DNA from: a virus
Lineage: Duplodnaviria; Heunggongvirae; Uroviricota; Caudoviricetes
Virus record (IMG/VR): IMGVR_UViG_2526164663_000038
Length of the DNA: 13,163 nt
Reading direction: 5' to 3' (one strand)
Shown here: positions 1,963 through 13,163 of the stretch, piece after piece
Layout: each line of letters opens with the position of its first letter
Position numbering within the stretch: position 1 is the first letter of the stretch
Notes under the pieces: generated by a model
What the model saw: the letters and a program-made list of their open reading frames with translations, nothing else
What the model was told of the DNA's origin: nothing
The model's database searches: none
Program-made: the position numbers and the translations under genes

Positions 1963-2504
1963 TTAAAAATCAGCCTGACTCGGGATCAGTTTTTGCCAGA
2001 TAACTGAAACGTATTTTGCCTGGTAACGGGCGTCATCAAGTGCATTATGGCGCTCACCTTCGAATGGAATAGCCGTTCTGGCATCGAAGTCTATGGCTTT
2101 CCCCAGCTCAACGATTGTGCGTACATCGCGATCGTTGTAGTAACGCCACGGGCAGGGGATCCCCTGCCGTTCGTATGAACGGCGCAAAATCGTGTTGTCG
2201 AAGTTGGCTCCATTTCCCCAGACCTGAACAAAAAATTCACCGGAGTTTTCGTCGATAAATTCCCGCAATTGTAACAGTGCATCATCTAACGGGATTTCAT
2301 CGGTCATAATGGCAGATTGCGCTTCGCGTGATTGCTTAAGCCACCATTTAATGGTGTCCCGATCAATGACTCCGCCAGCAGTTTCCAGATCGATAGTCTT
2401 ACTAAATTCCGGTCCCATATCTCCGGTTTGCGGATCGAAAAATATTGCACCTATTGAGATGATCGGGGCATCAGGATTTTTCCCATGGTTTCAAGGTCGA
2501 TCAT
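1963..2504 (-). pseudogene. DEDDh (DnaQ-like) 3'-5' exonuclease domain, split by a -1 frame junction
   Basis: Exo I motif MIDLETMGK (ATG 2504) is in the frame of the upstream 366-aa ORF; the remainder (PDAPIISIGAIFFD..., Exo II FDNTIL, Exo III HNALDDARY) is the ORF 1963..2418 in the -1 frame; junction at GGGAAAA, plus 2478-2484. Confidence 0.7.
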
Positions 2505-3598
2505 TAGATGGTCACACGTCCTGCTGGTGGATGTGATTTCTTGATGACCGTTCACCTTAATTGGGTGATCTGCCGTCTCGCCAGTTTCATTATCGCTATC
2601 GTGATGCTGATTGCCGCCAGTGTTCTCCTTGTGTGGATGTTCAGCGCCTTCCATTTCCTCCGGATCATCTTCCTGAACTTCAACCTGATACTCTTCATCG
2701 AATGTTTCCTGGTATGTAGCGTCGCCCATCACCGCGCCACAATCAGGGCAGTTGCCGCCGCCGGTCTGACCGCAGGCGGTGCAGACTTTTTCCACTTCCT
2801 GTTGCACTACTGGTTCAGGTAGTTTCGTTTCTGGCTCGTTTTGTTGCGTATTTGGGCTGTTTTGTTCCGCTTTCTGGTCGTTCTGTTCCGTTTCTTGCTG
2901 GTTCTGGTTCACAGAATCGCGGGTTTCAATCCCCTTCACCCATTTCGGATCATTCGGGTCGCTAATCCCTGCAACAAATTCACCACGTGATGCGGCGAGC
3001 AACTGATTGGCGTCAGGCTGGCTGATATTGGCTGCCTGCATAATTTTCTTTACTTCGTCAGCGGTAACTTTTACCGGTTCTGGTTGTTCAGAATTTTGTG
3101 CGGTATTTGCATTTTGCGGTAAACCTGTGTATGTGCCATTTTTTCGGGCGAAATATTCTTCTTTCGTGATTTCAGTAGCCCCTGCAGCCAGTGCCTTATC
3201 CAGACCAGAAAGTTTGTTTGCGCGACCGTATTTTTCGCTATCCTTGTCGGTGAAGAGGAAGTAGAACGGCCCTTCACGCTCTACAGATGGTTCGACTTCC
3301 ACTTTGCATTCGGTTTTTTCGTTGTCCGGAATTGCCGTTTCCACTGCATCAGTTTCTGGTACTGGCGACGAGAGAGTATCAGTTGCGCTCTGATTTCTTC
3401 CTTCATCTTCAAACACGCCCTTTGTAGTCAGGTATTCAGTAATGTATTTGTTCAGTGCCACAGGGTCTTTGTGAATGTCGATCGGACGTTCACGGACAAG
3501 GCCAAAAATAGTCTGGCGGTCGTAGCGAAGGGCATCAGGCTGTTTGCGCATTGATGCCGAGATACGCTTCCAGTCTTCGCGGTCGTTGTCGATAACTT
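2451..3598 (-). pseudogene. Central segment of the large early-left gene: acidic, Gln/Glu/Asn-rich low complexity with CxxC-x7-CxxC zinc ribbon
   Basis: This frame is open from the slip site at 3599-3605 to 2451 and reads straight into MIDLETMG; motif CTACGQTGGGNCPDC; protein-like composition. Confidence 0.6.
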
Positions 3599-4142
3599 CT
3601 TTTTTGCCCAGCGATGGATGCTGCCGTCAATGTTTCCGGCATCCACATCACCAGGCCAGAGAGCGTAGGCCAGTTCGTCATCCAGTGTTTTCCATGTCTG
3701 CTTGTATTCGCGATGAGTGGCAGCAATGACCGGGCTGATTTTTCCTGTTGAATTTTCAGTGTTCTGTTGATTGGCTCTGGCGCGGGCGAGATCAACAACA
3801 GACGTGTATTTTCCGGTTTCCTTGCGTTCACCTTCGCGACGTTTTTTCCAGATGCGCATCTCTGCCTGAATTTCGGGCCATTTGGCACCAGGCTTACATT
3901 TATGCTTAACCCACCCGATGGCATGCAGCTTAAGCTCCGGATACATGGCGTTAACTTCTGGCATTTTCATCAACGCTTCAACGATATGTCCGTCGAATGT
4001 TGCCATGTCTTCCTGCAACAATTCCTGCGCGCTAATCACCATATCAACGGTGATGTTTTCACATGTGTCGAACTTAACCATGACAGCGTTCTGTACTTCA
4101 GGGGCCAGCTTGTCAAAAGTGACGTTCATCGGATCTGATTCA
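3599..4142 (-). pseudogene. Middle segment of the large early-left gene, from the IS junction to the slip site (possibly ydfE-like)
   Basis: Continues the frame of the 5414..5703 fragment once the IS and one TSD copy are removed (..PVET|ESDPMNVTFDKL..); the track ORF 3452..4168 begins with a GTG inside the IS end and runs out of frame after 3599. Confidence 0.6.
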
Positions 4143-5410
4143 TGAGGTAGCCTGAGTTTAACGGACACTCCTTCCTGAAATAGAATGGCATCAGAAGGAG
4201 CTAATAATGAGCAGAAAAACCCAACGTTACTCTAAAGAGTTCAAAGCCGAAGCTGTCAGAACGGTTCTTGAAAATCAACTTTCGATCAGTGAAGGCGCTT
4301 CCCGATTATCTCTTCCTGAAGGCACTTTAGGACAATGGGTTACCGCCGCCAGAAAAGGGCTCGGTACTCCTGGTTCCCGCACGGTGGCTGAACTGGAATC
4401 TGAAATTCTGCAACTGCGTAAGGCGTTAAATGAAGCTCGCCTTGAGCGAGTCGGAGATATTAAAAAAAGCAACAGCGTATTTTGCACAGGAGTCGCTGAA
4501 AAATACGCGTTAATCGAACAATGGCGACAACAATTTCCCATTGAAGCGATGTGTCAGGTATTTGGTGTATCCAGGAGCGGTTATTACAACTGGGTACAGC
4601 ATGAACCCTCAGACAGAAAACAAAGTGATGAGCGGCTAAAACTGGAGATTAAGGTGGCACATATCCGCACTCGCGAAACATATGGAACCCGGCGGCTCCA
4701 GACGGAGCTGGCAGAGAATGGCATCATCGTTGGTCGTGACCGACTGGCACGTCTTCGTAAGGAGCTAAGGCTACGCTGTAAGCAGAAACGCAAGTTCAGA
4801 GCGACTACGAACTCGAACCACAATCTGCCAGTTGCGCCAAATCTGCTGAACCAGACGTTCGCTCCTACAGCACCAAATCAGGTCTGGGTGGCGGACCTGA
4901 CGTATGTTGCCACACAGGAGGGATGGTTGTACCTCGCTGGCATCAAAGATGTTTATACGTGCGAAATTGTCGGCTACGCCATGGGAGAGCGCATGACAAA
5001 AGAGCTGACAGGTAAAGCTCTGTTTATGGCGCTCAGGAGCCAGCGCCCACCTGCCGGGCTAATCCACCACTCTGATCGAGGTTCACAGTACTGCGCATAC
5101 GATTACCGGGTCATACAGGAGCAGTTTGGTCTGAAAACATCAATGTCGCGTAAAGGTAACTGTTACGACAACGCTCCGATGGAAAGCTTCTGGGGAACGC
5201 TGAAAAATGAGAGCCTGAGCCACTATCGTTTTAATAACCGGGATGAAGCCATCTCAGTAATACGGGAATACATTGAGATTTTCTACAATCGTCAGCGTCG
5301 TCACTCTCGTCTGGGGAATATCTCCCCGGCAGCCTTCAGGGAAAAATATCATCAGATGGCTGCTTAAAAAAAGAACAAATGGTAGTGTCCGCTATTGCCA
5401 GTACACCTCA
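4143..5410 (+). mobile_element. IS3-family insertion sequence (IS600-like), 1268 bp
   Basis: Imperfect terminal inverted repeats TGAGGT...GGACAC (4143-4170) and its complement (5381-5410); flanking 3-bp direct repeat TCA at 4140-4142 and 5411-5413; DDE transposase inside. Confidence 0.85.
4207..5367 (+). CDS. IS3-family transposase, OrfA and OrfB fused in one frame (386 aa)
   Basis: N-terminal HTH and leucine zipper (LESEILQLRKALNEARLE); DDE catalytic region (VWVADLTYV, HHSDRGSQY, ESFWGTLKNE); N-terminus MSRKTQRYSKEFKAEAV matches my recollection of IS600 OrfA; SD GGAG upstream. Confidence 0.85.
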   Translation: MSRKTQRYSKEFKAEAVRTVLENQLSISEGASRLSLPEGTLGQWVTAARKGLGTPGSRTVAELESEILQLRKALNEARLERVGDIKKSNSVFCTGVAEKYALIEQWRQQFPIEAMCQVFGVSRSGYYNWVQHEPSDRKQSDERLKLEIKVAHIRTRETYGTRRLQTELAENGIIVGRDRLARLRKELRLRCKQKRKFRATTNSNHNLPVAPNLLNQTFAPTAPNQVWVADLTYVATQEGWLYLAGIKDVYTCEIVGYAMGERMTKELTGKALFMALRSQRPPAGLIHHSDRGSQYCAYDYRVIQEQFGLKTSMSRKGNCYDNAPMESFWGTLKNESLSHYRFNNRDEAISVIREYIEIFYNRQRRHSRLGNISPAAFREKYHQMAA

Positions 5411-5413
5411 TCA

Positions 5414-5703
5414 GTCTCAACCGGGACAAAGGAAGCAGACTCCTCATCCCAGCGGTTTTCCTGCATATATTCAGCATCCCAGGAATCGAGGGCAGGGCGG
5501 GGTATACCGGGTTTATCCTCGCAAACAAGAAATTTATAAGCGCAGTCCTGAGCAGCCGGATAATGTTCCAGGAATTGCCAGTGAAATTTTGCGCGGGCGC
5601 GACGTTCATCACCGGCTTCAATGGCAGTGGCTACAGCGACGGCACCTTCTTCCTTTATTGCCTGTTCGTCCGGAATGGCGGCGCAAATAAAGACTTTACT
5701 CAT
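5414..5703 (-). pseudogene. N-terminal fragment (97 codons) of the large early-left gene, truncated by the IS insertion
   Basis: ATG at 5703 with GAGG upstream; frame runs into the IS right end and resumes at 4142 after virtual excision. Confidence 0.6.
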
Positions 5704-5795
5704 TTTGTTTTAACCTCATTACAGATTTCAGGGTGAACGAATCCCTGCCATTGCTGGCATTTTTAATCCGTTGGTATGCGTTATATGGCTGCGGG

Positions 5796-5984
5796 TTATC
5801 CAGCCGGTATTTCGTTATTCAGGTTCAGCGATACTTTTTTTAACGGGAGGCATTCACCGGGGATTTTTTGTTCGTCCCTTACCTGAATGCAGGATGACTT
5901 ACTGTCATAAATTCCGGTAATCACATTTTGTGGCTCACCCGTTATAAGAAAAACGGTCATCACCAGTGCAAATGCTGAAGTCAC
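5796..5984 (-). CDS. ydfD: YdfD-like small membrane protein (62 aa)
   Basis: GTG start overlapping dicB stop (GTGA), GGAG 7 nt upstream; hydrophobic N-terminus SAFALVMTVFLITGEP and C-terminal EQKIPG...EIPAG pattern recalled for Qin YdfD. Confidence 0.6.
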   Translation of the reverse strand: MTSAFALVMTVFLITGEPQNVITGIYDSKSSCIQVRDEQKIPGECLPLKKVSLNLNNEIPAG

Positions 5985-6169
5985 TGCTGTTCTCCGATAA
6001 TACCAAGTTCAAGAAGGGCAATTCTGGAAAGTATGGAATTATCATTGAGAAGATAAGGTTCATATTTCCTCATCTTAATGGCATCTTCAGTAAACTCCCG
6101 GTTACTGAGCAGAACACCAATATCAAAACAACCTTCAGACGTATTAACGTTTGGTAATAACGTTTCCAT
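5981..6169 (-). CDS. dicB: Cell division inhibitor DicB homolog (62 aa)
   Basis: ATG at 6169 preceded by GAGGA; N-terminal half METLLPNVNTSEGCFDIGV...FTEDAI matches my recollection of E. coli DicB, C-terminal half differs; the track ORF start at 6274 is an upstream in-frame extension. Confidence 0.8.
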   Translation of the reverse strand: METLLPNVNTSEGCFDIGVLLSNREFTEDAIKMRKYEPYLLNDNSILSRIALLELGIIGEQQ

Positions 6170-6343: not shown

Positions 6344-6396
6344 GGGCGGCAGAGCAGTCACGGAGTAAAACTGATACCGCCAAACGTCACCAGAAA
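6344..6396 (-). ncRNA. dicF: DicF small regulatory RNA
   Basis: Minus strand reads TTTCTGGTGACGTTTGGCGGTATCAGTTTTACTCCGTGACTGCTCTGCCGCCC followed by TTTTT, matching the 53-nt DicF sequence as I recall it; sits just upstream of dicB as in Qin. Confidence 0.9.
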
Positions 6397-6657
6397 ATTG
6401 ATAACAGAGGGCGTTGCAGCGGGGTTGTCACTTAAGCGTATGGTCAACCTGACAACCCGGTGTCCTCAATGGGGAAGGAATAACCCCGCCATACTTACCG
6501 CCGCGCCATTTCGCGGATTGCCACAACCAGAAGCGCACGGTCGAAGAAATTTAACGACAAGACTTATATGCAAAGGGATCTCGCCGTGCGCTTTCGTGTT
6601 ATGCCCTGACTTTTCAGGGTAAATTAACCTGTGGAAACCTGTTTTTACTGGCGCTAA

Positions 6658-7038: not shown

Positions 7039-7063
7039 AAAAAAAAGGTCGGCATTGCCGACC
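7039..7063 (-). terminator. Rho-independent terminator of the repressor gene
   Basis: GGTCGGC-att-GCCGACC hairpin followed on the minus strand by a run of eight U; lies 22 nt downstream of the repressor stop. Confidence 0.7.
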
Positions 7064-7744: not shown

Positions 7745-7825
7745 ATTGAATATAAATTATTTTAGATTGCATTGACCTAAAAAAATTATCTTGTAATCTA
7801 AAAATACTTAGATTTAGGAGGTAAA
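7745..7825. promoter_or_regulatory. Divergent immunity promoter/operator region (OR; PR rightward, PRM leftward)
   Basis: AT-rich 81-bp intergenic region between divergent repressor and cro; TTGACC (7772-7777) as candidate PR -35; inverted repeat AATCTA-N8-TAGATT (7795-7814) and extra TAGATT (7764-7769), same half-site as OL. Confidence 0.6.
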
Positions 7826-12764: not shown

Positions 12765-13007
12765 ATTCATTCCGTATGGGAATTCCCATATCGGGCAAAA
12801 CGGTTTGCTGTAAAGCGAGAGTTAAGTAGAATTGCTGCGGGTGCTTGAGGCTGTCTGCCTCGGGCATGCCACCGTAAGGCAGACAGAGAAAAGCCCCAGT
12901 TAACATTACGCGTCCTGCAAGACGCTTAACATTAATCTGAGGCCCAATCTATGCTTCACAAACGTAGGTTAGCCTCTTACGCGCCGAAAGGCAAGGAGAA
13001 GCAGGTT

Positions 13008-13163
13008 ATGAAGCAGCAAAAGGCGATGTTAATCGCCCTGATCGTCATCTGTTTAACCGTCATAGTGACGGCACTGGTAACGAGGAAAGACCTCTGCGAG
13101 GTACGAATCCGAACCGGCCAGACGGAGGTCGCTGTCTTCACAGCTTACGAACCTGAGGAGTAA
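13008..13163 (+). CDS. hokD: Hok-family type I toxin (51 aa), HokD/RelF-like
   Basis: MKQQKAMLIALIVICLTVIVTALVTRKDLCEVRIRTGQTEVAVFTAYEPEE matches my recollection of E. coli HokD; SD AAGGAG 9 nt upstream; structured leader; in-frame upstream ATG at 12951 gives the 70-codon track ORF. Confidence 0.85.
   Translation: MKQQKAMLIALIVICLTVIVTALVTRKDLCEVRIRTGQTEVAVFTAYEPEE

Follow-up and report, generated by a model that had tools for sequence, protein, structure and literature searches.

The Exonuclease Gene and IS600

The window, which is the whole 13,163-nucleotide stretch of DNA analyzed here, is a lambdoid prophage integrated beside potC. Contig AIGR01000022.1 of the draft genome GCA_000250035.2 of Escherichia coli O26:H11 DEC10C contains it without a single differing base. 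In the finished O26 genomes of strain 11368 (NC_013361) and RM8426 (NZ_CP028116) there is a single coding sequence of 2472 nucleotides annotated as exonuclease, which encodes the 823-residue protein WP_000048520.1. The domains of this protein are YdfE_N, YdfE_C, and a C-terminal Rv2179c-like 3'-5' exoribonuclease domain (residues 642–813). A local Pfam search of the intact protein returned the Rv2179c-like domain only, and YdfE_N and YdfE_C are taken from precomputed hits.

In the window the exonuclease gene is present as four pieces, split by an IS600 element and by two changes in run length. From the start codon onward, the features are as follows.

5411–5703, minus strand: exonuclease fragment 1, with the start codon at 5703–5701, codons 1–97, and the YdfE_N domain (PF27430); separated from the remaining pieces by IS600
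4143–5410, plus strand: IS600 (IS3 family), inserted after codon 97, with a TCA duplication at 4140–4142 and 5411–5413 and inverted ends TGAGGT...
3452–4142, minus strand: exonuclease fragment 2, from codon 98 of the ancestral gene to about codon 278, followed by a 48-codon out-of-frame tail
2451–3599, minus strand: exonuclease fragment 3, in the -1 frame, EVIDNDR ... ETMGK, followed by the out-of-frame tail ILMPRSSQ and a stop
2477–2481, minus strand: second frame junction, T5 on the plus strand (A5 on the coding strand), with six in relatives
1963–2476, minus strand: exonuclease fragment 4, the C-terminal Rv2179c-like domain (PF16473), with the stop codon at 1963–1965

The open reading frame listed for the second fragment begins at 4168, a position that falls within IS600. 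At the second junction the zero frame reads atG GGA AAA atc, and the addition of one A gives ETMGKNPDAPI. The remnant at this junction also fits the X_XXY_YYZ form. When IS600 and one copy of the duplication were taken out in silico and two A's were put in, a 2472-nucleotide open reading frame was obtained. It differs at one synonymous position, and its protein matches WP_000048520.1 exactly. The insertion of IS600 after codon 97 is the only lesion in the exonuclease gene that is strongly supported as real.

Sibling O26 strains carry IS600 independently in or near the exonuclease gene, at differing positions and in differing orientations. In DEC10C and in BEJV01000100.1 the element is situated after codon 97 in the plus orientation, in 2009C_3996 it has the opposite orientation and is situated at about nucleotide 678 of the gene, and in RM8426 it is found upstream of the gene, with DUF1391 and dicB on either side. 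In several further genomes IS600 abuts the exonuclease gene.

The IS600 copy in the window contains four extra bases at 4443–4470 on the plus strand (GAGCGAGTCGGAGATATT versus GAGCGAGATATATT), just 5' of its own A_AAA_AAG site. The extra bases fuse orfA and orfB into an open reading frame of 386 amino acids (4207–5367), a transposase that would need no frameshift. No full-length match to this 4-nucleotide insertion variant was found in complete E. coli genomes and none in a search with one genome per species, and the protein collection searched has no entry for the 386-residue fused transposase. The fused variant could be a real hyperactive form, or it could be a consensus error in a multi-copy repeat of the draft assembly.

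Two RNA genes are present in the window, the DicF antisense RNA (6344–6395, minus strand, 76.7 bits) and the sok antitoxin RNA of the hokD locus (12839–13013, plus strand, 114.9 bits), as expected for a Qin/Rac-like lambdoid prophage. A patch at 5630–6116, and especially at 5761–6057, spans the 5' end of the exonuclease gene, the DUF1482 gene, and dicB, and it differs from strain 11368, RM8426, and the sibling draft. About 297 nucleotides of the patch have no megablast match and its flanks are 96.5–98.6% identical, with no substitutions in the remaining window. Possible origins of the patch are recombination with a paralogous prophage and an assembly chimera between prophage copies. With its real-looking differences, the patch indicates that DEC10C is not identical to its relatives everywhere.

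The Heptamer at the First Frame Junction

The minus strand at 3610–3596 reads tgg gcA AAA AAG aag, with the codons TGG (3610–3608), GCA (3607–3605), AAA (3604–3602), AAG (3601–3599), and AAG (3598–3596). This codon reading confirms the original prediction that the slippery heptamer is in the zero frame and falls exactly on the first frame junction.

3599–3605, minus strand: A_AAA_AAG heptamer at the first frame junction, an A6 run at 3600–3605 followed by G at 3599, in the zero frame of the open reading frame 3452–4168

The coincidence of the heptamer with the frame junction is real. The heptamer itself is no rarer than chance in the window, where six copies of AAAAAAG are found against an expectation of 3.9 ± 1.9, and six or more were obtained in 40 of 200 shuffles.

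Past the heptamer, the zero frame contains 48 sense codons, reading KLSTTTAKTG...TLWH, before the stop codon at 3454–3452; the unslipped frame had been placed at about 50 codons with its end at 3452, and so it was found. A -1 slip would give the product ...IHRWAKK EVIDNDREDWKRISASMRKQ..., with 382 codons to the stop codon at 2453–2451 (open reading frame 2451–3551); the -1 frame after the heptamer continues EVIDNDREDWKR.... The length of the -1 frame had been predicted as about 380 codons, which holds, but the further expectation that it continues into the exonuclease does not, as the frame halts at the start of the Rv2179c-like domain. It ends there at the second one-base homopolymer shortfall (T5 at 2477–2481 in the window, T6 in relatives).

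The position of a canonical heptamer right on the junction, in the zero frame, together with a -1 product that is a sensible protein, would suit programmed -1 frameshifting of the dnaX/IS3 type. Such frameshifting would yield two products, a short one that stops at 3452 and a long transframe one.

One A Fewer than in Relatives

Over the 2245 nucleotides of the gene that lie 3' of IS600, strain 11368 and the window differ by no substitutions and by two one-base gaps, both of them in A runs. One gap changes A7 to A6 at the first junction and the other changes A6 to A5 at the second junction. At 3600–3605 the window has six A's and then a G, whereas seven A's is the length in relatives. Relatives at 99.9% identity contain A7 and one continuous open reading frame, and the base that is missing relative to them is seen directly when the sequences are compared.

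The intact site reads TGG GCA AAA AAA GAA GTT ATC, in the stretch W275 A276 K277 K278 E279 V I D. The peptide WAKKEVIDNDR, which had been predicted as the transframe product of slippage, is ordinary sequence of the intact protein. Removal of one A from GCA AAA AAA GAA yields GCA AAA AAG AAG, so that the heptamer in the zero frame is a by-product. Because the heptamer at the junction and the sensible protein in the -1 frame are both automatic results of the base loss, they are not independent evidence for recoding. The original prediction had offered a one-base deletion in an A7 run as an alternative to recoding, and in view of the A7 run and the continuous frame of the relatives this is the correct description of the site. 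It had also named A7 with a continuous open reading frame in related genomes, and no conservation of the short product, as the finding that tells against recoding, and this is what the comparison returned.

Run Length and Products across Genomes

The 81- or 82-nucleotide stretch around the site is present in 3570 of 5426 complete E. coli genomes. The exact 82-mer with A7 was found in 1586 complete-genome records. The exact 81-mer with A6 was found 7 times among the matches listed and can occur at most 14 times. The seven complete genomes with the A6 allele come from different laboratories. Two of the A6 copies (BR1220 and NCTC9104) were inspected, and both are situated in a different, decayed prophage remnant. 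In RefSeq (PGAP) these two copies are annotated as "frameshifted; incomplete; missing N-terminus," that is, as pseudogenes. Judged by these genomes, the change from A7 to A6 does occur in nature, where it is annotated as pseudogenisation and not as a conserved arrangement. Among copies of the O26 potC-site prophage, the A6 allele is found only in DEC10C.

The intact exonuclease protein is found on at least 1000 contigs. Of the frameshifted product of 225 amino acids, a set of about 15 billion proteins contains a single copy (EHW77401.1, from DEC10C), and the 48-codon zero-frame tail of this product was found nowhere else. Strain 2009C_3996 has been assigned to the clonal complex of DEC10C (PMC4711113), and its 3' gene fragment runs unbroken for 1803 nucleotides across both run sites and carries no frameshift flag. 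The single continuous frame in all close relatives, the excess of A7 over A6 copies, the pseudogene annotation of the two A6 copies examined, and the solitary occurrence of the tail all argue against programmed frameshifting at this site.

Recoding Signals and Distant Homologues

The elements that accompany programmed frameshift sites were looked for around the heptamer. The 80 nucleotides downstream fold with -20.1 kcal/mol, which is no better than shuffled sequences (-17.5 ± 2.8 kcal/mol, z = -0.94) and gives no indication of a stimulatory RNA structure. Upstream, the 20 nucleotides before the heptamer contain no GGAGG, AGGAG, or GAGG that could act as a Shine-Dalgarno-like element. No Rfam frameshift element is present in the window, in which the Rfam matches are DicF and sok only. 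The open reading frame upstream of the junction also lacks a start codon and the first 97 codons, which were lost to IS600. Each of these points counts against programmed recoding.

Conservation of the A run or of the frame break was not found among distant homologues, all of which read through the site in one frame, and this too argues against recoding.

Phage Tritos: GCA AAA AAA GAA
PPompW phages: GCA AAA AAT GAA
Stenotrophomonas phage: GCG GAG AAA
Klebsiella prophage: GCC AAA GAG
HK225: GCT AAA GAA
Gifsy-2: GCA AAA GAA

Distant homologues, HK225 and Gifsy-2 RecE among them, have only the middle region in common with WP_000048520.1, at 35–43% identity. Although many records name WP_000048520.1 "exonuclease VIII," it is not RecE proper. 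In phage PPompW_EH1846 (LC567839.1, 1632–4099) the depositors label the homologous gene a pseudogene "frameshifted by deletion of ...". The deleted position is a different one, outside the 139-residue region around the A-run site. Inactivation of the exonuclease gene has thus taken place repeatedly, in different prophage lineages.

Differences between the DEC10C Contig and Strain 11368

The DEC10C contig and strain 11368 are colinear for 17.7 kb. Along this span the contig has six one-base deletions, every one of them in a homopolymer, and not a single substitution. Grouped by length in the reference, the shortened runs amount to 0 of 203 runs of four, 1 of 75 runs of five, 1 of 22 runs of six, 2 of 4 runs of seven, and the only runs of eight (1 of 1) and nine (1 of 1). 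Four of the six reference runs of at least seven are thus shortened, and no run is lengthened. Three of the deletions are intergenic, two are in the prophage exonuclease gene, and one is in a core DUF3592 gene. The intergenic sites are as follows.

6471–6474, plus strand: G4, compared with G5 in relatives; intergenic
7039–7046, plus strand: A8, compared with A9 in relatives; adjoins the GGTCGGCATTGCCGACC hairpin downstream of the repressor gene; intergenic
7779–7785, plus strand: A7, compared with A8 in relatives; in the repressor-cro intergenic region

The DUF3592-domain gene is situated in the core chromosome outside the prophage, between ycfZ and potD. In the DEC10C draft its A7 run reads A6, and owing to the frameshift the gene is called as 124 amino acids compared with 153. 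Shortening that is confined to homopolymers and depends on their length is the signature of systematic homopolymer under-calling.

An independent draft of a sibling strain (GCA_002734985.1, contig BEJV01000100.1) contains an IS600/exonuclease junction identical to that of DEC10C, which indicates that it descends from the same insertion event. At all three of the sites that it covers, this assembly has the reference lengths G5, A9, and A8. The contig ends in IS600, short of position 3600. By exact protein look-up, no match was found to the intact 3' products expected of the sibling (722 and 735 amino acids).

Discussion

We consider the first frame junction to be a one-base shortfall in the A7 run of a normally continuous prophage gene, and the comparisons point with good confidence to a homopolymer under-call in the draft assembly as its most probable origin. 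According to this explanation, DEC10C would contain an ordinary continuous prophage gene with an A7 run, and the run would have been called as A6 when the draft was assembled. The under-call would convert GCA AAA AAA GAA to GCA AAA AAG AAG, and a slippery heptamer would appear on the frame break. Given the pattern of errors, a technical rather than a mutational cause is most likely. The A6 run belongs to a set of six deletions that are found in homopolymers only and are accompanied by no substitutions, which makes an assembly error likelier than a biological mutation. Counting against an artefact are the presence of the A6 allele in seven complete genomes of other lineages, the fact that a gene broken by IS600 is free to gather such mutations, and the patch at 5630–6116, in which DEC10C departs from its relatives. 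Frameshifts in the cas genes of sister DEC drafts have been noted in a comparison of O26 genomes, in which sequencing or assembly errors were suspected (PMC5592225).

There is a small but appreciable probability that the deletion is real and private to the strain, and that slippage during replication shortened the A7 run when IS600 had already inactivated the gene. The junction would then reflect prophage decay and would be leaky without any selected function. In keeping with such decay, IS600 and its 3-bp target duplication separately interrupt the exonuclease gene, and the A6 allele is found in at least seven complete genomes, the two inspected copies of which are in degraded prophage, so that the run would be a natural mutational hot spot. 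However, six homopolymer deletions with no substitutions in 17.7 kb, and the shortening of four of the six runs of at least seven, are unlike mutation. Both the reference lengths at three sites in the sibling that shares the IS600 insertion and the restriction of the A6 allele of the O26 potC-site prophage to one assembly also speak against a real deletion. As a source of the six deletions we considered a mutator strain. Mismatch-repair-deficient lines gain more base substitutions than indels, and a mutator is unlikely in view of the absence of substitutions and the proportion of long runs affected.

If the deletion is real, leaky -1 slippage on the remnant heptamer is plausible at a low level. 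Few heptamers shift as readily in E. coli as A_AAA_AAG, but heptamers without stimulators there give frameshifting at just 2–10 times a background of about 0.05% (PMC4066793). A full-length product would in any case still be blocked, and the leakiness matters little because IS600 splits the gene upstream and a second frameshift follows downstream.

It is very improbable that a real deletion marks the A7 run as a hypermutable, slippage-prone switch, in which recurrent A6 alleles would be partly rescued by -1 slippage. Even in the wild type, the run forms A_AAA_AAA when read in the zero frame. Were the run such a switch, it would provide tunable expression of a protein with a 3'-5' exoribonuclease domain.

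Programmed recoding at 3599–3605 with two products, which the original prediction had offered as one of two readings and which would have made this a new -1 frameshift gene of lambdoid prophages, is effectively excluded by the comparative data, as relatives have A7 and one open reading frame, the short product is found in one assembly only, and no stimulator was found.

The site carries a caution for the annotation of draft genomes. One base lost or under-called in an A7 run creates a textbook heptamer exactly where the frame breaks. A -1 slip then appears to "restore" the protein, and sites of this kind in draft genomes are therefore very good mimics of programmed frameshifting. Three questions discriminate between the two: which run length do near-identical genomes have, are the other differences from them all in homopolymers, and is the short product conserved?

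Comparison with Known Systems

The junction resembles the frameshift sites of dnaX and of the IS3 family (IS600, IS911, and IS3) in having the same zero-frame heptamer and two long frames that a -1 slip links. A genuine site of this type is present in the window at 4463–4469 in IS600, 860 nucleotides away, and in relatives it is annotated in RefSeq as a programmed frameshift. In contrast, the two-frame layout at 3599–3605 is not conserved, the site has no downstream structure or Shine-Dalgarno-like stimulator, and its zero-frame product has no counterpart elsewhere. A likeness also exists to the translational "correction" of indels within slippery runs, which has been reviewed (PMC5009743), since the A6G remnant could in principle be partly corrected by -1 slippage to give WAKKEVID. 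With the decaying pseudogenes of lambdoid prophages the locus shares an accessory gene that has been struck by an IS element and by changes in run length, although here the deletion is seen in the draft assembly and nothing points to selection for leakiness.

Homopolymer-length errors are typical of flow-based and some long-read sequencing chemistries. The DEC drafts were presumably pyrosequenced, a presumption that forms no part of the evidence. For GCA_000250035.2 the assignment to this class of errors is made from the pattern alone: the differences of DEC10C from strain 11368 are single-base, run in one direction, rise with run length, fall in coding and non-coding sequence alike, and are accompanied by no substitutions. 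At the three intergenic sites that the sibling assembly covers, the short runs are absent from it.
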